Origin: Vezdaea acicularis
Lineage: Eukaryota
DNA length: 20,000 bases
Reading direction: 5' to 3'
Assembly: GCA_026025075.1 (NCBI GenBank)
Contig: JAPEUI010000083.1
Span: 57,873-77,872 of the forward strand
The first letter of the stretch is position 1, and every line of letters begins with the position of its first letter. Below, one piece after another: positions 3 through 17,900 of this stretch. Made by a program: the position numbers and the translations under genes. Below the pieces are notes generated by a model. It had not been told where the DNA came from, made no database searches, and saw only the letters and a list, made by a program, of their open reading frames with translations.

Positions 3-1820
3 GGCACGAAGCAATTTATGGAAGCTCTCACAGCTGGTGCTGACATTTCTATGATTGGCCAGTTTGGTGTTGGGTTCTACTCTGCCTACCTCGTTGCCGA
101 CAAGGTCACTGTTATTTCCAAGCACAATGACGATGAGCAGTACGTTTGGGAGTCAAGTGCGGGCGGCACATTTACCCTCACTCCAGACACTGAGGGAGAG
201 CAGCTCGGACGTGGTACAAAGATGATTCTTCACCTTAAAGATGAGCAGACTGACTATCTAAACGAGTCCAAGATCAAGGAGGTTGTCAAGAAGCATTCCG
301 AGTTCATTTCTTACCCGATCTACCTGCATGTTCTTAAGGAGACCGAGAAGGAAGTTCCCGACGAAGATGCAGAAGAGAAAGAGGCCGAGGAGGATGAAGA
401 CAAGAAACCGAAGGTTGAAGAAGTGGACGATGACGAAGAAGACAAAAAAGAGAAGAAGACGAAGAAGGTTAAGGAGTCAAAGATCGAAGAGGAAGAGCTT
501 AATAAGACAAAGCCTATCTGGACAAGAAATCCCTCTGACATATCGGCGGAGGAGTATGGCAGTTTCTACAAGTCTCTTTCGAACGACTGGGAGGATCATT
601 TGGCGGTCAAGCATTTCTCAGTCGAAGGTCAACTTGAGTTCCGTGCCATCCTCTTCGTCCCGAAACGAGCTCCATTCGACCTTTTCGAGACCAAGAAGAC
701 CAAGAATAACATCAAGCTGTACGTGCGTCGTGTCTTTATCACAGACGATGCCACTGATCTCATTCCTGAGTGGCTGAGCTTCATCAAGGGTGTGGTCGAC
801 TCAGAAGATCTTCCTCTCAACTTGTCTCGTGAGACTCTTCAACAGAACAAGATTATGAAAGTCATCAAGAAGAACATCGTCAAGAAGACCTTGGAGCTGT
901 TCAACGAGATCGCCGAAGACCGTGAGCAGTTCGATAAGTTCTACACGGCATTCTCCAAGAACATCAAGCTTGGCATCCACGAGGACTCTCAGAACCGACA
1001 GTCACTAGCAAAACTTCTTCGATATAATTCAACAAAGTCGGGTGATGAACAGACCTCATTGACTGACTACATCACGCGCATGAAGGAACACCAAAAGAAC
1101 ATGTACTATATCACCGGCGAATCTCTCAAGGCTGTCCAGAAGTCACCTTTCCTCGACTCTCTGAAGCAAAAAGAGTTCGAAGTCTTGTTCCTTGTTGACC
1201 CGATTGACGAGTATGCCATGACTCAACTCAAGGAGTTTGAGGGTAAGAAGCTAGTTGACATCACTAAGGACTTTGAATTGGAGGAGACTGAAGAGGAGAA
1301 AAAGGAGCGTGAAGCCGAAGAGAAGGAGTTTGAGGGACTGGCAAAAGCTCTCAAGGAGGTTCTTGGTGACAAGGTTGAGAAGGTCGTCGTTTCCCACAAG
1401 CTTGTTGGCTCTCCATGTGCTATTCGAACTGGTCAATTCGGTTGGTCCGCCAATATGGAACGTATCATGAAGGCCCAAGCTTTGCGTGATACTTCAATGT
1501 CTTCTTACATGTCTTCGAAGAAGACCTTTGAGATCTCTCCAAAGTCACCCATTATCAAGGAGCTTAAGAAGAAGGTTGAGGCAGATGGCACAAGCGATCG
1601 TACCGTGAAGTCAATCACTCAGCTCCTCTTCGAGACTTCTCTCCTAGTTTCTGGATTCACCATCGAGGAGCCGGCAGGGTTTGCAGAGCGTATTCACAAG
1701 CTTGTCTCACTCGGCTTGAATGTGGATGAAGATACCGAGCTGCCCGACGAGAAGCCAGAGGAAACAACGACGAAGGAGGGTGAAGTTGTTGGGGAGAGCG
1801 CCATGGAGGAGGTGGATTAG
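3..1820 (+). CDS. HSP90: Heat shock protein 90 (cytosolic), 5'-partial; the N-terminus lies upstream of the window
   Basis: The frame is open from position 3 (GTKQFMEAL...). It shows the Hsp90 motif [10 protein letters not shown], the charged linker, [29 protein letters not shown] and the C-terminal MEEVD. Stop TAG at 1818-1820. Confidence 0.99.
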
Positions 1821-6667: not shown

Positions 6668-8299
6668 ATGAGCAGGTATGTAATCATCCGCAGATTTCTT
6701 CGGAGCTTTCAGCTTCATTGCACTCGTCAAACTTTTCACCGTTCTCATATCACTTGCTAATGCCAGTTTCAAATAGCAACATGCTACAGCGGCGCTCTAC
6801 TCGCCCCGTTGGACGCCAGTCTCGTCGAGGCCAGAAATACAGAGAGCGGAAGCGGTAAGTCCAATTCATATCAGTGTCAGAAATCAGAATCTAACGATCT
6901 CCATAGAGCCAAAAGCCCGAACAGAATCGTCCATTGGGATGAACAGACCCGCGAGGATGCCGCAAACCAGTGGCTTCGGGAGATGGGCATGCCCCACGGC
7001 GGGGACTTCGGAGCCGGCAGCAGAGATGGCGATTTTGATGACGAGCCGATCGGAGACAACTATTATGGCTACGACGTCGAAGACGACGCTGTCACGGTGG
7101 CCAAGCTCAAGGTCAACCTTCGGACGAATGACCTTTTCCTCAAAAATGAGAAAAAGGTCAATGTCGTTCTCGGCCGGAGACCAGATCTCAATCCTGCCTC
7201 TGCGGAAGAGTGGGAAGCAGCCGAGGACCGCCTCGAGCATGAAAGAGCCGAGGTGAATGAAAGAGCTGAGATGGAAGGTTTTTATGAGCACTTGGAGTCT
7301 GCTCACGGCGCTGGCAGTTGGCAACCAGAGGTATGGACACAAGATGCTTTTCACTTACACTTTACTGACAGCTCTAAGGTACTCGCTGAAGAAGTCTCGG
7401 TTTGTGACAACTGTCGACGAGACCGGTCCGCGAGCCCAAGCTCCGTACTAATAAAACGTGAGGCCGATTCACCTCAACCCGACCCAAGGGCGATATCCTA
7501 TCGACCCAGCCTTCCACCTTCTCCGCTCTTTCCGCCCGCCGATAACTCCGAGCCGCTTTCTCCTGACTACGCCCCGAAGTCAGAACCCTCCGAGCAAGCT
7601 CTGGCCTTTCCTCTCGATAGCAACGTTCGAAGGTCTCGCGGTGAGCGTCCGACCTCTCCTCCCCATAACCACGGCCTAAACCCACCCAAGGCCTCTCGTC
7701 TTCCGTCTTGGGTTGGCTCTCGCAGTCCCCGAACTTACGGTTTGGTGGCTCCCGACTTCCCACCTCTACCATCTCAGATGGCTCCTCCTTCTCGTGGACG
7801 CAGCAGCCACGCAAAACGACCCGAGTCCCCAGGCTCCCCGTTCCGAGGCCTCAGAACAAGCAGCAAGCTGACTGAGCGCCGCCAAAACCCGTCTCCTCGC
7901 ATTCGAAAGCGCCGTGGCCGGTACAATCGGACCATGTCGGCAGCTGGTACCATCATGGCTGCAGCCACCGGCACCGCAACGCAGGCCGTGCGAGCCTCCA
8001 TAGCAGCTCGCTCCGACTACAGCCGGACTATGAGATCGGTCCTGAATCGAGAGAGACCGGTGACAGACCTGATCAATATCAGCGATCTGATTGCCATCCA
8101 GGCTTGGAGAAGGAGGGGGGACTCTTATGCGCGTCAGGAGCGTATAGAGAGTCGGGAACATATGGAGAGGCGGGAGGAATTAGAGAGGCGGGAGGGGTTC
8201 GAGAGGCGGGAGGGGTTCGAGAGGCGGGAGGGTTTAGATTGGGAGCGGGAGTGTTTAGACTGGGAACTGTTGGTGCTCGCTGGCGGGCCGGACTTTTAG
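6668..8299 (+). CDS. Hypothetical/orphan protein (about 500 aa; acidic N-half, Pro/Ser/Arg-rich disordered C-half, ERREG repeats); 5' structure uncertain
   Basis: A stop-free frame runs 6761-8299. A good donor GTATGT at 6676 and branch CTAAT at 6757 are present. The only ATG-initiated in-frame model I find is exon 6668-6675 plus exon 6790-8299 (intron 6676-6789). No recognisable domain; a CxxC (CDNC) lies near 7404. Confidence 0.55.
8147..8236 (+). repeat. Coding 18-bp tandem repeat (about 5 units, GAGAGGCGGGAGGGGTTC-like) encoding ERREG(F/L)-type hexapeptides
   Basis: Units read directly: gagagtcgggaacatatg / gagaggcgggaggaatta / gagaggcgggaggggttc x2 / gagaggcgggagggttta. Confidence 0.9.
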
Positions 8300-8464: not shown

Positions 8465-9352
8465 ATGCCCACCTCCGACCCCCACCCCAACGAGACACCT
8501 CCCTCAATAAAAACGTCCTCCCTCACCTACGCCTTTGCTGACGGCTCCCCCGGCCTCCAAGACGTGACCCTCGACCTCCCCGCTGGCAGCCGAACACTCT
8601 TAATTGGCGCCAACGGAGCCGGAAAGACCACTCTCCTTCGCCTGCTCTCCGGCAAGCGCCTCGCCCCTCCGAACAGCGTATCCATCAGCGGGGTCGACCC
8701 CTTCACCCACGGCCTCGAAGGCGTGACCTACCTCGGGCTAGAATGGGTACTCAACCCCATCGTCCGGACCGACATCGACGTCCCAACGCTACTGAGCAGC
8801 GTCGGCGGCGACTACTACACGGAGCGGAGAGACGAGCTCGTGCGGATCTTGGACGTCGATCTGAGCTGGCGGCTGCATGCGGTGAGCGATGGGGAGCGGA
8901 GGAGAGTGCAGCTTGCGATGGGCTTACTGAGGCCGTGGAAGGTGCTCTTGCTGGATGAGATCACGGTCGATCTGGATCTGCTCAGCCGTAGCGAGTTTCT
9001 GGGGTGGCTGAAGGCGGAGAGTGAGACCCGTGCTTGTACGATCGTGTATGCGACGCATATCCTGGATAATCTGGCGGAGTGGCCGTCGCATCTCGTGCAT
9101 ATGGCGCAGGGTCGAGTGAAGGAGTGGGGCGAGCTGGGGAGGTGGGATATTGGTGGTGTGCAGCAGAGGAGGAGTGGGAATAGTTTGCTGGGTGAGTTGG
9201 TGTTGGGTTGGTTGAGGGAGGACTTGAGGGAGAGGGGCCCGAGGAGGGGGAAGGGTGAGGGGAAGACTTATGAGAGTTTGGAGGGGAGGGGCGGGTATGG
9301 GAATGAGAAAAATAGGAGTAAGGAGGAGGAGGAGGCTGATAAAAGGTCTTAG
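8465..9352 (+). CDS. CAF16: CCR4-NOT-associated soluble ABC ATPase Caf16 (single NBD, no transmembrane domain), intronless
   Basis: Walker A GANGAGKTT, deviant signature VSDGERRRVQL, Walker B LLLDEITVDLD, H-loop YATHI, and family-typical TYLGLEW. 295 aa; CACCATG start context. Confidence 0.9.
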   Translation: MPTSDPHPNETPPSIKTSSLTYAFADGSPGLQDVTLDLPAGSRTLLIGANGAGKTTLLRLLSGKRLAPPNSVSISGVDPFTHGLEGVTYLGLEWVLNPIVRTDIDVPTLLSSVGGDYYTERRDELVRILDVDLSWRLHAVSDGERRRVQLAMGLLRPWKVLLLDEITVDLDLLSRSEFLGWLKAESETRACTIVYATHILDNLAEWPSHLVHMAQGRVKEWGELGRWDIGGVQQRRSGNSLLGELVLGWLREDLRERGPRRGKGEGKTYESLEGRGGYGNEKNRSKEEEEADKRS

Positions 9353-9488
9353 AGAAGCATGCATGGTTGGGGGCCGTGATCAACTTGACTGGTACTTTAA
9401 CTGTTATTTTGCGGCTTTGATATTCAACATAGCATTTGCAGGAAAAGCGTTGGTTGTATAAAGAGGCATAGCTTTTTTAGAGGCAGCA

Positions 9489-12095
9489 TTAGAGGGCTAT
9501 AGAATATAAACGCAAGGTCGAATCTTCACTAGCTACAGCAAGCTCATGCAGCATCCCTTTAGAACTCGAGGGCGTATAGGTTGATGTGTGCGGTGAAGAA
9601 TCTCGTTCCGAGGGCCTCCAAGCAATCTGCGTGACTGGCCTGCTTGGGCAGATGCTACTCTGAAGTGAGTTTCACAAGAACTGCTGTGGAGTCTAAGAGG
9701 GGCAAACCTTATATCAAGAGAATACTTCTCCACCTCGGATGAACTTTGCAAAGCCAATGTGCCAATGGTAAGAGATCCGTCCTCGCATCCAATAGCCAGG
9801 ATATGGCATTCGTCAACGGGAGAGGGCAGAAAGTCAATTGCTGTGACTGGCATATCCATGGGTACTGTATTCCGAAGTATGAAACCTTCCGCCGAGTGAA
9901 TCCAAATCTTCACAGTTTTGTCCCTGCTCGCAGTAGCAAACATCCTCCCCCAGAAGTCCGGAGCCCACGCTGCATCAAGGATCATTCTCGAATGCGCTTT
10001 CTCTTTAATTTTGACCACCTTATAGGTCTCGGAGTGTGCTGCATCCCTTTCGAAGAGGGCCCACTGGCGATCACGACCAACGCTTAGGAGGTACTGGTCG
10101 TCTTGCGTAAACCTTAGCCTAGTCACGGTCAAGGAGTGAGCAGTTAGGGGGGGCTTGACCTCAAGCCATTCTGTTGTGTCGTATAGCCTGATTACTGCGT
10201 GACCTATCGAGCTTGCACGGCACGCTGTAGCTATGACTTTCCCATCGTGAGAGGCTGCTAGAGCTGATATTTCATACCCGTGCCCGTAAAGCTTCTCAAG
10301 CTCGGGCCAAAGGGTATAGCGAGAAAGGTGGTCTTCTAATGGAGGCATATTGATACCAAAGAGAGGATTTTCTGCATGAGATGCTCCACTGCCTGCTTCT
10401 TGACTAGGTTCTGGAGGAATAGGGGCTGTGACCTCCTGGCTTGGTGTTTCTACAACCTTATTAGATAAGCCTAGGGCTGGTATACTAGCAGCTTCGGGCA
10501 AAGACTCGTTTGAACCTTCTTCGAGGCCACATAACCGTTGGAGCATTGTGGAAACTGCTCTGGGCTTATCAAAGACTCGCAGAAGTTTTTCGTCTGCACC
10601 GGAAACAAATCGATCTGGGCCAAGTGAGTCAACGCAATTTAGATCATAACCATGAATTTGCGGCCTAGAGAATTCGTGCCAAGATTTGCTCTTCAACTGT
10701 GAATGCAGTCTGGTCGTTTGATCGGAGCTATGGGAAGTCAGCACCGCACGTAATCGTGTTTTTATTGACTGCATACCTTGTAGAGAGAAGATAGCCGCCA
10801 TCTTTCGACCATGAAATACCCGTGACACTTTTGAGGTGCCCTGAGATCCCTGGCCGTTGGACCCACTGGCCGTTCTCCCGATCAAATACCCAGAGCCTCC
10901 AGCTACCGGTTCTTCCCAGGCTTACGATCATGTCCTCTGTAGGACACCACAGACCGTTCCAAAACCCCCCAGTGCTGCCAGTTGCTGTAGTTGAGCCTTT
11001 CTGTACGCTGATTTCTCCTAGTCTTATCACGGAGATCCATACCCCTGACGTCGGGTCCGACTCCCAGATTGACATTGAATTATCGGAAGATGCTGAGAGG
11101 AGTTGTAACTTTCCGAGTCTGAATACCCATGAAGCCGTATAGACCCAGTCCTCGTGCCCGAGGAGTAGTGCTTCGAACTGAGCTGAATATACTCGCCCGT
11201 ACGCTTCGAAGCGATGTGCTTTGTTCGAAAGCAGCTTTCCGAAGGAGCCTCCGAGCCGCTTCAATTCCCCCTCGTTCCCTGAAGGCACGACCTCGTCCTG
11301 ATGGATTCGCCATAAGCGTACGTACTTGTCTTGACTCGCCGACGCAAGCAGAATATCACCTCGACCAGTCTCATTTTCAGGAGTGAATGCTAGAGACCGT
11401 ATCCATCCGTCATGTCCGGCCAGAGTTACTTTAAGCTCGAACCTTGGAGTTGACTCGGTAATGTTGGCGGCATAGACCTGGATGATATTCTTTGTTCCTG
11501 CTACAGCGAGAAGACAAGCCCCATCAGATTTGTAAGAAGAACTGAGAGCCAGTGCCAGAGGAAGGAATCGAGGGGCCAAGGTGATCGACTGAATAACTAT
11601 AGCTTCAACCTTCTCCGGCCCATCTGATGTTTTCCATATCTTGAGAACCCCATCAGCTGATCCAGTTACAAATAGATCTAGTTCTGGGGCAACTGCGAGA
11701 ATGTGTATAGTGTTCTCATGATCAGAAAGTGTAGATACGGTCTTGAACTCCGGAGGACAATCATTGCTTTGCTGCCATAGGCGCACCGATCTGTCAACAG
11801 ACCCGCTAATGATGATTCTCCCATGACGGGGACTCCTGAAAAATTTGACAGCATTGACATTATCCGTATGGCCTCTCAGTACCGTTTGTATGCTGCAATG
11901 TCTTTCGCTCTATCGACTTTGTTAGTCACTTGAACCAGGGGGAAAAGACCCCCACACCAGTACCGCTGAATCCCATAGAGCTACGTTTCTGTCACACCCG
12001 AATGCGAGTAAACTGCTGTCGGGGTCGTAATCTGCCGCTGAAGGGTGACCGTTTCCGCCAGCGGCGACGTGGGCTACCTTTACGTTGGTCACCAT
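9489..12095 (-). CDS. ELP2: Elongator complex subunit 2 (WD40), 816 aa; exons 12095-11964, 11909-10777, 10727-9708, 9654-9489
   Basis: Introns 11963-11910, 10776-10728 and 9707-9655 are all GT..TAG and give one continuous frame of 2451 nt. Motifs: AGGNGHP..LAFG, GHDGWIRSLAF, LASASQDKYVRLWRI, FEALLLGHEDWV, STSSDQTTRL, WHEFSRPQIHGYD, SGADEKLLRVF, LWPELEKLYGHGYEI, HSLTVTRLRF, and C-terminal LAVASEDSTLRLYSI. Confidence 0.96.
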
Positions 12096-12237
12096 TCAAT
12101 TCGCTCCTTGAATGGAATTCCCGAGTTTCCCTTTTTCAGATATAGAAGGCCAAATCAACTCTAGCACGAGCGTGCGCCCCAATATTGCCAATATTTGCGG
12201 CTTTCTTTAGCATCTAAGACAGTCTACGGCATATCAA
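12096..12237. promoter_or_regulatory. Compact bidirectional promoter region shared by ELP2 and URM1
   Basis: 142 bp separate the divergent ATGs. It contains a central inverted repeat GCACG-AG-CGTGC (12164-12175) and tandem CCAATATT (12179-12186, 12188-12195). Confidence 0.75.
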
Positions 12238-12717
12238 ATGGCTACTGCTGATAGTCAAGTTCGCAATGACAGGCATGGAGACTCGATTGGAATAATTGTT
12301 GAGTTTGCGTATGCACCTCCTAACATTTGATACTTCCTAGGCAGAAGGTTTGAGAAGCTGACGCTCTGTACAGCGGAGGTTTAGAGATGCTTTTCTCAAA
12401 TGCTCGGCGGTTGGAGATTTCGCTCCCTACTAAGGACGAAAATGGTCATGTCTACAATATAGCTTCCCTCGTACAACATTTGTGCAAGGATATAATGAAG
12501 GACAAACGAAAGGAACTATTCATGTTGGACGGAACAGTGTATGTCTCTCTTGGTACATAAACGTACTTCTTCTACTCTAATGCGCCATGCGTTTCTTAGC
12601 CGCCCAGGTATCCTCGTATTGGTCAACGAGGCCGACTGGGAACTTGAAGGGGGTGATGCTTATGAGTTGAAAAGCGGTGATCACATCCTCTTCGTTTCTA
12701 CGCTTCACGGAGGTTAG
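12238..12717 (+). CDS. URM1: Ubiquitin-related modifier 1 (sulfur carrier for tRNA U34 thiolation), 117 aa; exons 12238-12308, 12374-12538, 12600-12717
   Basis: Manual translation: ...[15 protein letters not shown]...[31 protein letters not shown]...[10 protein letters not shown]. Introns 12309-12373 (GTATGC..CTGAC..CAG) and 12539-12599 (GTATGT..CTAAT..TAG). Not in the supplied ORF track. Confidence 0.97.
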
Positions 12718-13211: not shown

Positions 13212-14451
13212 CTAGAATGGAATCGCAGGAGGAGCGGGCGGTGCACCAGTCCTCTCCTGAATTTCCATCATTTCTTCGCTCGAGGCTTCAATAGAAACCG
13301 CAAGCCCGATTTTCGCTTGGTTCTATCATCACGGTCGAGTCAGCGCCATGTAACATGTTAAGCAGGCATGAAGCAAGCATGATATCTAGAAACACAATAA
13401 AGATCTGCACATACCTTAGAATGATCCATATCTCCGGCGAACGTAACCCTGACGGCAGGAGCAATACTTTTTTCGAGGAGACAACTTATTTTGCCGGTGC
13501 TGTCAACCTGCGCTCGAAAGCTAGACGCACGATAGTCCCACTTTGCACCAAGTGTAGTTACGCCTTCTCTTTGCAGACCGCCACCCATTAAACCTCCCCC
13601 GCGGCTGCCTAACCCAAGGTTCATGTCCACACCAGCTTCTACCTTGTCTGACAGTCGACGCCAGTATGATGTTTTCAAAGCACCTTGAGCTTGAAGATTT
13701 GCACTAGCGATCCAGTCGTTCCCTCTGTACTTGGCACAATAGTTGACTACTGATTCGGGGCCCATATTGACGGCCTGCCGCTGCCAGACAGCTTCTAAAC
13801 CAAGTGCGAGACTCGGAGTGACGGATTGCATGTAACTACCGACTAGGATACCCGTCAACCCTCCTTCAAGTATGGAAGGGTTGAGGGACTTGAGTGAAGC
13901 TGTAAAGTCCTTCCCGGTGTAGTCATTGTCGAGCTGCAACATAGCTTGTGCTGCACCAGGAGCTACCTGGACATTTGTCTTAGTCACAAACGATGGAGTC
14001 CATTTATAATTTGCCCGCGCGCTAAGTGCACCCTCATTATCAATGTTGCCTTGCATGAAAACCTAAGGAAAGATTAGAGTGGCTCGATTCAAAGTTGAAG
14101 TAATGGGACGGCCAAGGCCAACAAGTAGTAGTAGCTTGCCTTTTCAGTTCCATAGAGCCCAGAAAATGTATAAGGCGGAAGACCTTGAGCACCCATTGCA
14201 AAGCCATGCGACACCTGAAAAAGAGGCGTTGCGCTGAATGATTTGGTCAAGTCCGCGCGCAACCCCGTGAACATTGATCGCGACAGGAAAACGCCATCCT
14301 CAACTTCTCTTGCTATACCTTCCGTTGTTCCAGGGTTTGGCAACCCCAATGCTTCTCTCCGAGCTGAGTATGAAGACCAAACATCTCGTAAAGCTCCAAT
14401 TACGGCGTTATTGTACAGAAAGCTACCAGGCGAGGCTTTCTGATCCGCCAT
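13212..14451 (-). CDS. TOM40: Mitochondrial outer membrane translocase channel Tom40, 356 aa; exons 14451-14140, 14062-13415, 13322-13212
   Basis: Motifs: RREALGLPNPGT, FTGLRADLTK, PLFQVSH, VFMQGNID, DYTGKDFTASLK, YMQSVTPSLALGLE, FRAQVDSTGK, QAKIGLAVSIE, and C-terminal IPF. Intron 1 14139-14063 is GC..TAG; intron 2 13414-13323 is GT..TAG. Confidence 0.97.
14063..14139 (-). other. Non-canonical GC-AG intron (TOM40 intron 1)
   Basis: The minus strand reads GAA AAG|GCAAGC...CTAAT CTTTCCTTAG|GTT TTC ATG, which joins YGTEK to VFMQGN in phase 0. Confidence 0.85.
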
Positions 14452-14921
14452 CCTGGACAGGAGATGTTGAATTATTTAAGCAGCTTCCTGTTGCAAGGAA
14501 GTAAACATTAAATTACCAACGAACAGAAATTGAAAAGAGAGGCGAAAAAGAAGTAGAGCGTAGGGCGACCGGTGTTGACTTAACGGAATGAGAATCTCTT
14601 GGGTACGAGGAAACTTATGATGCGTATCAAAAGTTTAGGAGTTGAGCAGAGAATATTTTGTTAGAGACGAATGTTACTCAGAAGTGCGTATATTTCCGCA
14701 TGACTGGCCGGCAGGGCAGTGATAGGGCTCGCGTCCGCGAACAATACTTTTCTGTGTGATGACTCAGCCCTATACGCGAAAATTAACACAACGACTCCTG
14801 ACGATTTCTAGTCGTGTCGAAAACTCAACTCGACTAAGAGGCATATATCACCAACACCCCTCCCGAGCTACGAGGCACCAAGATCAGCTCTAGGCATTCA
14901 TTTTGATTGAACTCATCAAAT
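14452..14921. promoter_or_regulatory. Divergent promoter region between TOM40 and eIF3a with a Gcn4/CpcA/AP-1-type TGACTCA site
   Basis: 470 bp separate the divergent ATGs; TGACTCA is at 14760-14766. Confidence 0.5.
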
Positions 14922-17900
14922 ATGGCGCCTCCACCTCAAACAAGACCCGAGAACATGATGAAGAGGGCGCAGGAGTTAATTGCGGTTGGGCAATCCTCGG
15001 CAGCCCTGGCTTCACTTCACGACTTCGTCACTTCGAAGAGATCAAGGAATAACCCCATCACATCGATGGAACCGGTGATGATGTTGTTTGTGGAACTATG
15101 CGTAGACTTAAGGAAAGGAAAGCAGGCCAAAGATGGTCTATACCAGTACAAGAACACCGCACAAAACACGAACGTTCAAACAATAGAAGTAAGTCATCGG
15201 ATGTACTTTCGTTGGAACAGGAGGTACTGACGTTTCTGCAGCTTGTATTTGGAAAGTTTATGGAGCTCGCGGAGCAGAAGGTCACTGAGGCCCAAGCTCT
15301 GGCGGACGAGCATCAATCAACGCTTGAGTCGAAAACGCTGTCAAGCAATGTAGATGATTTGGAAGCCCTTGAAACTCCAGAGTCGATTCTTCTCTCGACA
15401 GTATCCGGGGAGCAGTCGCGAGATCGAACTGATCGAGCAATCGTCACACCATGGCTCAAATTTCTTTGGGAGACCTATCGAACTGTTCTCGACATCCTAA
15501 GGAATAACGCTCGTCTTGAGCTCAAGTATATGACTACCGCCTTCCAAGCATTTAAGTTCTGCTCGAAATATCAACGAAAGACAGAATTCCGAAGACTTTG
15601 TGAGTTGCTGCGAAATCATCTGCAGAACGCGGCAAAATACTCGCAACAGAACCATGCTATCAATCTTAGCGAGGTTGATACTCTGCAGCGACATCTAGAC
15701 ACTCGCTTTCAGCAACTAGAAGTTGCCGTAGAACTTGAGCTATGGCAGGAGGCTTTCCGAAGTGTCGAAGACATCCATAATCTCCTAAGCCTCAGCAAAC
15801 GTGGGGCAAAGAACGTTATGATGGCGAATTACTACGAGAAGCTTACAATCATTTTCCTCAAAAGCGAGAATTACCTTTTTCATGCCGCAGCATGGAGCCG
15901 GTACTACAACCTTCTTCGATCTTCAGCAAATTCAATGGCAGCAGGCCTGAGTACTAAGAAAGACAACCCGCCCATCTCTGAAGATATCATGAGCAACGCT
16001 GCCTCTTTCGTCCTTCTTTCGGCTCTGTCTATTCCCGTGATAAGCACATCGCGGTCTCGTGGCGCGCTGGTTGACGTCGACGAAGCCAAGAAGAACAAGA
16101 ACACCCGCCTCACCAACCTCCTTGGCATGTCTCAAGCACCAACCAGAGCTGTTCTTTTCAAGGACGCCATGAGCAAAGGATTACTAAAGCGTGCGAAACC
16201 AGAAATCCGAGAACTTTACGACATTCTTGAAGTCGATTTCCATCCTCTATCCATCTGCAAGAAAATATCTCCTATCTTGATCAAAATCGGCAACGACGAA
16301 GAGATGAAGCGATATGTTGCACCTCTCCAGCAGGTCATCCTCACTCGCCTGTTTCAACAGCTTTCTCAGGTCTATGAATCGGTAGAACTATCCTTCGTCT
16401 ACAAGCTTGCCCAATTCCCCGAGCCTTTCCAAGTCAGTACAGCGACGATCGAGAAGTTCATAATGAATGGCTGCAAGAAAGGAGACCTCTCCATTCGAGT
16501 GGACCACGCAACGGGCCATCTTGCCTTTGACTCTGATGTCTTTTCTTCTGCAAAAGCGCTTCATGCGGGATCAAGCGTAGGATCCGCGGAAAGCGAGACT
16601 AGCTCTATCCAAAAGCTCCAGAGTACGCCTGCTGAGATCGTCAGGTCACAGCTCACTCGTCTAGCTAAGTCGCTGTTCGTAACATGCCAGTATGTAGATC
16701 CTTCTTTCAACGCTGCCCGTTCGAAGGCGAAAGAGGAGGCAATGCAGAGGGCCAGGTTGGGAGCTCAAAAGGAGCATGACGAAGCTTTGGCCAGGAGAGC
16801 TATCATCGAGAAGAAGAAGGAAGCTGCATCATCCGCGCTTGCTCAAAAAGAGCAAGAGGAGGCAAAGGCCAAACGGGTTCGTGCCCAGAAGCTTCAAGAG
16901 GCCGAGTCTCAGCGTCTCAAGGATGAGCAGGCGGAACGTGAGCGAAAACGACTGAAGGCCGAGCAAGACCGCATTCGTCAGAAGGAGCTAGAGAAGCAGT
17001 TGGAAGACCTCAAAGGAGCGGGTGGAATCGACCTTACCGATATCAATACTGAGGATCTCGACAGCGGCCGTCTGCGGGCGATGAAGCTGGCACAACTCGA
17101 AAAGGAGAAGAATGAGCTCAACGAGCGACTACGTGTGACTGGAAAACGGATCGATCATCTTGAACGTGCATTTCGTCGAGAAGAGGCCAAGCTCCTACCA
17201 AAGGATTATGAGGAGCAAAAGAAGCACGACATGGCTGCGTATGAGAAGCAAACTGCTCAAATACTCAGGGACGCCAAGCAGAAGCATGAGGATGATCTGC
17301 TCTTGAAGCACCGTCTAACTAGACTGGTTCCTACCTACGAAAAATTCCGCGACGACATCCGAGAACGACGTCACGAGGAATTCGCGGCCAATCGCAAAGC
17401 TGCCGAGAAGGAGCTCCAAAAGCAGATGGAGAAGCGTCGTGCCGAATTCCGTGCGAAGAAGGCCCGGGCCAAACGTGAGCGTGAGGAGCAAGAGCGGCTG
17501 GCTCAGGAAGAAAAGGAAAGACTAGCTCAGGAAGAAGAAGAGCGGGCTGCGAAGGCCGAAGAAACACGGCGTCAAATGGCCGAACGAAAGGCGCAGAGGG
17601 AGGAAGAAAATAAGTATATACCCTCAAGCCCGCTCCTTATTAAGTGCATTGCTAATCTCTGACATCCATAGGAAACGAGACGAGATCGCCGCCAGGCAAC
17701 GCGAAGCAGAAGAAAGAGCTGAAGCTCGCCTCCGCGCTCAAAAAAGCGAATCCCGACCCGCCGAACGCGCCCCACAACGCATGACCGAACGCACTGACTC
17801 TGGCGAACGCAGGCGCCCAGTCATTGCCCTTGCGGGTAAGGTCCCATCATGGCGCGAACGGGAAGAAGCCAAGAAAGCTGCCGAAGTCACTGGCACCGCA

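Follow-up and report, generated by a model that had tools for sequence, protein, structure and literature searches.

ELP2 and URM1, from the two arms of wobble-uridine modification, form a widely conserved head-to-head gene pair in filamentous ascomycetes

Two divergent genes and the spacer between them

The window examined here, by which we mean the whole 20,000-nucleotide stretch of contig JAPEUI010000083.1 from Vezdaea acicularis, carries a minus-strand ELP2 and a plus-strand URM1 which point away from one another across a very short spacer. Elongator, whose WD40 subunit is encoded by ELP2, makes the cm5 side chain of the wobble uridine, and the sulfur carrier for the 2-thio group is the product of URM1; 5-methoxycarbonylmethyl-2-thiouridine at tRNA position 34 (mcm5s2U34) requires both genes. 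The order and orientation of the two genes are widely conserved among filamentous ascomycetes, and the spacer may serve as a promoter region for both. The parts of the pair are as follows.

12096..12237, no strand: putative shared promoter spacer, with two ATTGG/CCAAT motifs and a CT-rich block
11958..12095, minus strand: ELP2 exon 1, with the ATG at 12095; ends at 11958 (GTGTGG) or 11964 (GTACTG)
10777..11909, minus strand: ELP2 exon 2, first WD40 propeller (yeast Elp2 51-404), with WD40 Pfam matches
9708..10727, minus strand: ELP2 exon 3, second WD40 propeller (yeast Elp2 427-735); its acceptor ends at 10728
9489..9657, minus strand: ELP2 exon 4 (predicted), including the TAA stop at 9491-9489
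12238..12308, plus strand: URM1 exon 1, 23 residues and 2 nucleotides, followed by a phase-2 intron
12374..12538, plus strand: URM1 exon 2; the acceptor ACAG ends at 12373 and the donor GTATGT starts at 12539
12600..12717, plus strand: URM1 exon 3, ending ...LHGG and then TAG

Judged by homology, the minus-strand gene is ELP2, the orthologue of Elongator complex protein 2. WD40 repeats occur in two long minus-strand frames (10728-11909 and 9533-10921) and in two short ones. Frame 10728-11909 matches residues 51-404 of solved yeast Elp2 (PDB 5m2n_A) at E 1.1e-68, against only 1.6e-23 for the top non-Elp2 WD40 protein, and frame 9710-10726 matches residues 427-735 of the same chain at E 1.9e-91, against only 4e-41. 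Both halves are therefore best described as collinear with yeast Elp2 and closer to it than to other WD40 proteins. The closest database relatives share 53-57% identity, many of them named Elongator complex protein 2, and the best relatives listed overall share 49-57% across 88-96% of the query.

The predicted four-exon coding sequence is complement(join(9489..9657, 9708..10727, 10777..11909, 11958 or 11964..12095)), which encodes 819 or 817 residues; at the donor of intron 1 and at both ends of intron 3, the predicted splice sites have alternatives. Both variants of exon 1 are in frame and align to one relative (P0001) from residue 1. The donor following exon 2, GTATGC, starts at 10776, and a branch-like CTGAC precedes the acceptor of exon 3. 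For intron 3, a donor at 9707 combined with an acceptor at 9658 preserves the frame, further acceptors being possible, and frame 9489-9671 encodes ...PSRPVTQIAWRP...LAVASEDSTLRLYSIAL*, which matches the C-terminal consensus of ELP2 homologues.

Named relatives share only about 55% identity with the window's ELP2, which forms a long branch (0.79) on the ELP2 tree described below. For HSP90 of the same window (3-1820), identity to its counterparts in lichen-forming Teloschistales, Pyrenula and Onygenales is 87-92%. The two figures together point to an organism near the Lecanoromycetes and Eurotiomycetes with a fast-evolving ELP2, and by this comparison the evolution of ELP2 is unusually fast in the window's lineage.

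The plus-strand gene belongs, by its profile and structure matches, to the Urm1 family, and a beta-grasp fold and a Uba4-dependent sulfur-carrier role would be expected of its product. The predicted coding sequence, join(12238..12308, 12374..12538, 12600..12717), encodes 117 residues and ends in ...FVSTLHGG, with a TAG at 12715-12717 directly after the Gly-Gly; the C-terminal Gly-Gly of Urm1 is its site of thiocarboxylation. Pfam Urm1 (PF09138, cut-off 21.8 bits) is matched by exon 2 at 33.8 bits (E 4.5e-8) and by exon 3 at 59.6 bits (E 4.2e-16). Against solved Urm1 chains, exon 3 gives E-values from 2.5e-15, for 6yuc_G, to 8.6e-9.

The gene is absent from the track of open reading frames, and its N-terminus is some ten residues longer than that of the shortest relative, as might be the case for a mis-prediction or a decaying pseudogene adjoining ELP2. 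This is very improbable given that all three exons are open, that both introns have GT..AG ends, that the Pfam scores exceed the cut-off and that the Gly-Gly end is intact. The exon structure is, moreover, repeated in 40 of 42 related loci, in which a phase-2 intron follows straight after ..VEF of exon 1, as it does in the window.

A sequence-only reading of the window had proposed ELP2 with its ATG at 12095, a three-exon URM1 with its ATG at 12238 that the open-reading-frame track had missed, and a head-to-head spacer of 142 bp. The structure matches and named relatives confirm the first, and the Pfam and PDB matches together with the intron borders the second; the spacer, measured from ATG to ATG, is exactly 12096-12237.

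Conservation of the pair and of its neighbours

The N-terminal half of ELP2 was aligned with 23 relatives, and the alignment was scanned against metagenome contigs of the Joint Genome Institute (JGI). The scan gave 378 pattern matches, 269 of which encoded a relative, and the best 80 of these 269 were analysed. Loci were chosen by ELP2 alone, blind to their neighbours, and fell into 58 clusters at a nucleotide identity of at least 97% over the ELP2 match. Neighbours were located by tblastn with the window's proteins. So as not to count successes only, we defined an assessable set of 43 clusters whose sequence extends 1500 bp or more upstream of ELP2; among the 15 short-flank clusters set aside, URM1 is visible in 7 and not in 8.

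By tblastn, 42 of all 58 clusters, and 35 of the 43 assessable ones, have URM1 on the opposite strand upstream of ELP2. A profile search adds one more locus (L023), so that the linkage stands at 36 of 43 assessable clusters (84%), and the orientation is divergent in every linked case. In L023 (positions 1-1950), exon 1 of URM1 and the first part of exon 2 occupy the expected place, and the same strand then continues into an ELP2 fragment that is inverted; this indicates a palindromic and probably chimeric contig, and the locus was scored as linked with a flag. Recurrence in so many independent clusters means that the pair is not a chance juxtaposition in one genome.

Clusters were placed on an ELP2 tree of 92 rows (58 cluster representatives, 33 named relatives and the window) and 377 columns, built by a quick search with support from the Shimodaira-Hasegawa-like approximate likelihood-ratio test (SH-aLRT) only. 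The linkage is distributed among the assessable clusters as follows.

Dothideomycetes (Pleosporales, Glonium, Venturia-like and others): linked in 19 of 21
Helotiales: linked in 7 of 7
Eurotiomycetes (Aspergillus-like, Thermoascus-like): linked in 4 of 4
Clade with the lichen Pleopsidium: linked in 2 of 2
Unplaced lichen-like clade: linked in 2 of 2
Sordariomycetes: linked in 2 of 3
Pseudogymnoascus clade: linked in 0 of 3
A single locus beside the Eurotiomycetes (L076): linked in 0 of 1

The clade with two linked clusters in three was assigned to the Sordariomycetes because its best named relatives are Xylariales, Coniochaeta, Colletotrichum and Fusarium, at 61-69%. By their placement on this tree, the linked clusters lie in or next to the Dothideomycetes, Eurotiomycetes, Lecanoromycetes, Leotiomycetes and Sordariomycetes. 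The divergent pair is thus at least as old as the common ancestor of these five classes, which by common estimates lived several hundred million years ago. An adjacency limited to one lineage, produced by chance in a recent rearrangement, is refuted by the count of 36 in 43, by the spread over five classes with the orientation always divergent, and by the conserved URM1 intron position. The sequence-only reading had itself suggested that restriction to one lineage would speak against its proposal, and the adjacency proves to reach well beyond this lineage.

The unlinked clusters are the three of the Pseudogymnoascus clade and four others (L066, L070, L076 and L077). Upstream of ELP2 at such loci we find another WD40 protein, a WHIM1 protein, a mitochondrial carrier or a PX-domain protein, and these differing new neighbours indicate that the breaks were separate events. 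Parsimony on the ELP2 tree requires six changes among 50 scored tips, or five if L023 is taken as linked. At L076, where URM1 was not found within 4.6 kb upstream of ELP2, ELP2 itself (L076:4410-6998) is a single intronless frame of 863 codons on a branch of 1.06.

Other genes of the window provide a measure of how long neighbouring pairs persist. They are arranged as follows.

3-1820, plus strand: HSP90, the first gene on the window map
Between HSP90 and the next entry, plus strand: a bHLH gene
6761-8299, plus strand: an unknown frame of 512 codons without a Pfam match, directly upstream of the CAF16-like gene
8465..9352, plus strand: a CAF16-like ABC ATPase (Pfam ABC_tran), convergent with ELP2; comparator neighbour
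13358..14475, minus strand: TOM40 (Pfam Porin_3; solved Tom40 9i6b_A, E 5e-84), convergent with URM1; second comparator
Plus strand, divergent from TOM40: eIF3a, the TOM40-eIF3a pair spanning 13358-17662

The name CAF16 for the ABC ATPase is one which we presume to be appropriate rather than one assigned by a tool. The nearest Atlas clusters of this protein include one named 'putative CCR4-NOT regulatory complex component', and a comparison with the PDB gave no match at E 1e-20. Its frame ends 136 bp from the ELP2 stop (9353-9488), a gap so short that the two transcripts probably overlap at their 3' ends. We know of no functional tie between ELP2 and this gene. Five DNA runs are listed as matching the window stretch, four of them moss metagenomes from one study, and no RNA run is among the matches.

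Counted by tips, URM1 is retained beside ELP2 in 36 of 43 clusters, the CAF16-like gene in 15 of 26 (58%) and TOM40, within 10 kb, in 8 of 23 (35%). The CAF16-like adjacency is present in 15 of 15 assessable clusters outside the Dothideomycetes, the Sordariomycetes and L076, and is missing in nine of nine Dothideomycete clusters, an absence that fits one old event; on the tree, the pair requires three changes among 26 scored tips. Where TOM40 is present it is reversed relative to ELP2, and a gene for 6-phosphofructo-2-kinase intervenes, facing TOM40. The TOM40-eIF3a pair was found in none of the eight clusters with TOM40 in reach, eIF3a being matched by tblastn in no locus. At 11 long Dothideomycete loci, URM1 is the sole ELP2 neighbour common to other classes, bar one single-locus family. 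A clustering of open-reading-frame families at 31 long loci was used qualitatively only, being blurred by antisense ELP2 frames and by URM1 exons below the 80-residue limit.

The persistence of two tight neighbours on either side of ELP2 invites an explanation by packing alone, in which URM1 and ELP2 have independent, abutting promoters, breaks within a spacer of 100-250 bp are harmful, and the common pathway is a coincidence. The tight convergent pair formed by ELP2 and the CAF16-like gene is what this explanation would predict, since it persists at a similar rate per event, and the fact that URM1-ELP2 was lost five to six times with no sign of replacement agrees with it as well. Set against these points is the other divergent pair of the window, TOM40-eIF3a, which is not kept at all in the clusters where it could be assessed. 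Helotiales, furthermore, keep URM1 beside ELP2 throughout despite spacers of 283-540 bp, so that lack of room is not the whole reason for retention there. By our own rough estimate, a chance neighbour drawn from a pathway of about 25 genes among some 10,000 is unlikely, and a coincidence of pathway is improbable to that extent. Nevertheless, with two long-lived tight neighbours of ELP2, one of them lacking any functional tie known to us, packing constraint stays a serious rival, and we regard it as a real possibility at somewhat below even odds.

The spacer and its possible role

Among relatives, the two ATGs are 102-540 bp apart, the median being 188.5 bp (n = 40); some of these lengths are minima, since the ATG nearest ELP2 was taken. 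The median is 176 bp in Dothideomycetes and about 205 bp in Eurotiomycetes; the two Sordariomycete spacers measure 298 and 323 bp, and those of Helotiales have a median of 522 bp within the range given above.

Two conserved elements occur in these spacers. The first, TAAGCGAG, is found in 16 of 41 spacers, whereas in 50 mononucleotide shuffles no 8-mer exceeded 7. Across the 10,140 bp of spacer TAAGCGAG occurs at 1.58 per kb, compared with 0.021 per kb over the other 475,759 bp of these loci, a difference of about 75-fold. It forms the core of a longer element, GCTAAGCGAG, and is spread over nine Dothideomycete and seven Helotiales clusters, in opposite orientation between the two. The interval between TAAGCGAG and the URM1 ATG is about 85-130 bp in most spacers, the exceptions being L064 (360 bp) and L067 (25 bp). 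From the ELP2 ATG the element is separated by 69-88 bp in Dothideomycetes and by 172-410 bp in Helotiales. The second element, CTTATCGATAAG, occurs in six spacers, comprising all four Eurotiomycete clusters and both clusters of the Pleopsidium clade. The loci concerned are listed here.

TAAGCGAG in Dothideomycetes: L006, L015, L019, L028, L047, L048, L053, L058, L067
TAAGCGAG in Helotiales: L007, L010, L017, L024, L025, L043, L064
CTTATCGATAAG: L001, L011, L032, L036, L038, L054

CTTATCGATAAG is a perfect palindrome of two abutting inverted GATA-type half-sites and takes the corresponding place of GCTAAGCGAG; the letters TAAGC are common to the two elements in five of the six spacers. In Dothideomycetes a second half-copy (..ACTAGCG) stands right behind GCTAAGCGAG. 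A likeness of these elements to the Dde box and Taq box of Neurospora ribosomal-protein promoters was considered but not adopted.

General promoter motifs are less distinctive. CCAAT is not enriched (15 of 41 spacers, against 15.6 in shuffles), TGACTC and CACGTG are at chance level across the spacers, and TATAAA is rare (3 of 41, against 6.9 in shuffles). Taken together, the elements point to at least one putative factor site, independent of orientation, that appears to have been under long-term constraint in the relatives. Such independence of orientation is expected of an element serving both sides, and to that degree argues against packing alone.

The reading we favour, with a probability of roughly 55%, is that the spacer is a compact, TATA-poor promoter region serving both ELP2 and URM1. 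Most likely, the two genes would be transcribed in opposite directions from this one region: with 142 bp between the ATGs, the start sites should lie in one nucleosome-free stretch, or else the 5' untranslated regions overlap. The two genes would be coupled through a single nucleosome-free region and one or more factor sites common to both, and Elp2 and Urm1 would accordingly be expressed together in a housekeeping-type manner. The pair would be retained since, the spacer being so short, a break within it would be harmful to one promoter or to both, and probably also since the joint making of one part for each arm of mcm5s2U34 is useful.

Several observations weigh against this reading. Firstly, the linkage involves only one of the six Elongator subunits. 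Secondly, the five to six independent breaks, with their varied replacements, mean that the link is dispensable. Thirdly, counted per event, URM1 (5-6 changes in 50 tips) and the CAF16-like gene (3 in 26) are alike; an unrelated neighbour is equally persistent, and retention therefore requires no functional reason. Fourthly, the position of TAAGCGAG tracks URM1 and not ELP2, so that the element may serve URM1 alone, a point which the packing explanation shares. Furthermore, the window's own spacer (12096-12237) contains none of TAAGCGAG, CTTATCGATAAG and TATCGATA, and neither TAAGCGAG nor CTTATCGATAAG was found upstream of ELP2 in eight unlinked or doubtful loci. Finally, the survey consists of metagenome contigs placed by the ELP2 tree, all inside five classes, with Pezizomycetes, Orbiliomycetes, yeasts and basidiomycetes outside its range.

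These observations also temper three elements of the sequence-only reading. That the pair would be better kept than neighbouring unrelated pairs holds when tips are counted (84% against 58% and 35%) and does not clearly hold when events are counted, the CAF16-like neighbour being lost no more readily. Its one bidirectional promoter stays a proposal, given the long spacers of Helotiales and an element that in most spacers keeps its distance to the URM1 ATG only. That such a promoter coordinates both branches of the modification exceeds the evidence, as a single Elongator subunit is linked.

A stronger version of shared control would make the pair a dedicated two-gene regulatory unit of filamentous ascomycetes, devoted to the joint tuning of both halves of mcm5s2U34. 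Its compact bidirectional promoter, retained since the ancestor that the five classes share, would set how much of both halves the cell is able to make. A putative factor would then bind sites of the GCTAAGCGAG type, and of the CTTATCGATAAG type in Eurotiomycetes and the Pleopsidium clade. If this were true, wobble-uridine modification would be tuned transcriptionally as one trait, for example to the supply of sulfur or nutrients. We consider such a unit doubtful, and prefer the more modest shared promoter region set out above.

The pair among known systems

No description of the URM1-ELP2 linkage was found in open-access PubMed Central or bioRxiv full text, in agreement with the sequence-only reading, which knew of none. 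The single paper found to name both genes there deals with matters other than gene order. The terms 'urm1' and 'ubiquitin-related modifier 1' have no occurrence in the text and six supplementary files of a study of fungal divergent gene pairs (PMC2871058).

Gene models may have contributed to this silence. Two deposited models, from an Aspergillus and from Sarea resinae, fuse 6-phosphofructo-2-kinase to ELP2. One of them (P0113) maps to L032:6784-12262 and L038:5614-10952, and the other (P0012) to L001:7257-12379. At the join these fused models pass over about 1 kb, or about 1.2 kb in the case of P0012 on L001, and it is within this gap, on the other strand, that URM1 is located; it seems that URM1 was left unannotated and its neighbours were merged. 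As URM1 is small and has two introns, and as at least two models run across it, surveys based on annotation would miss the linkage, and this is likely to be one reason why the literature is silent.

The side-chain and thiolation branches are mutually dependent, both biochemically and genetically, and how they are balanced is little understood. We know of no binding between Urm1 and Elp2. A pair that joins one member of each branch, in fungi whose gene order is otherwise scrambled, offers a concrete and testable handle on this question: one short promoter with a conserved element, which could be mutated or split in tractable species that apparently keep the pair. The biology of tRNA modification would gain a defined promoter, while the general understanding of such pairs would be unchanged.

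The closest functional reference is Saccharomyces cerevisiae, whose URM1 and ELP2 encode orthologues of the window's proteins, judging from the matches to solved Elp2 and Urm1. In this yeast URM1, UBA4, NCS2 and NCS6 constitute the thiolation branch, and Elongator is encoded by ELP1-6. The yeast URM1 and ELP2 genes are, we presume, unlinked and on different chromosomes, and the linkage is a feature of filamentous ascomycetes as far as our sample reaches. Mutants of ELP2, IKI3, NCS2, NCS6 and UBA4 fall into one phenotype cluster, according to PMC5922974.

Bidirectional promoters of animals and plants are defined, in two studies (PMC2648788, PMC2670823), by neighbours on opposite strands with start sites less than 1 kb apart. 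URM1-ELP2 agrees with this definition structurally, as the 5' ends face one another and ATGs 142 bp apart necessarily place the start sites within 1 kb. The likeness is structural, shared elements and correlated output being putative for this pair, and the promoter is TATA-poor.

A second comparison concerns genome organisation. In Hane et al. (2011, PMC3219968), filamentous ascomycetes are described as keeping gene content on chromosomes while order and orientation are randomised, and Dothideomycete genomes as having 'randomized orders and orientations'. TOM40 follows this mesosyntenic pattern, lying near the pair in some groups with another orientation. The URM1-ELP2 pair escapes such scrambling, and so, less completely, does the pair of ELP2 and the CAF16-like gene.

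The nearest precedents are the divergent pairs of Davila Lopez et al. (2010, PMC2871058), who count functionally related genes among the most conserved divergent pairs of fungi, such as histone H2A/H2B and H3/H4, SNZ1/SNO1, RAD16/RAD7 and ribosomal protein pairs. URM1-ELP2 resembles these in that non-homologous genes of the same process stand head to head with a short spacer between them and have been retained throughout Pezizomycotina or beyond. Divergent pairs of functionally related genes are therefore a known kind, among whose reported members URM1-ELP2 is new. Unlike the pairs given there, it unites the products of parallel enzyme branches, which meet on one nucleoside.

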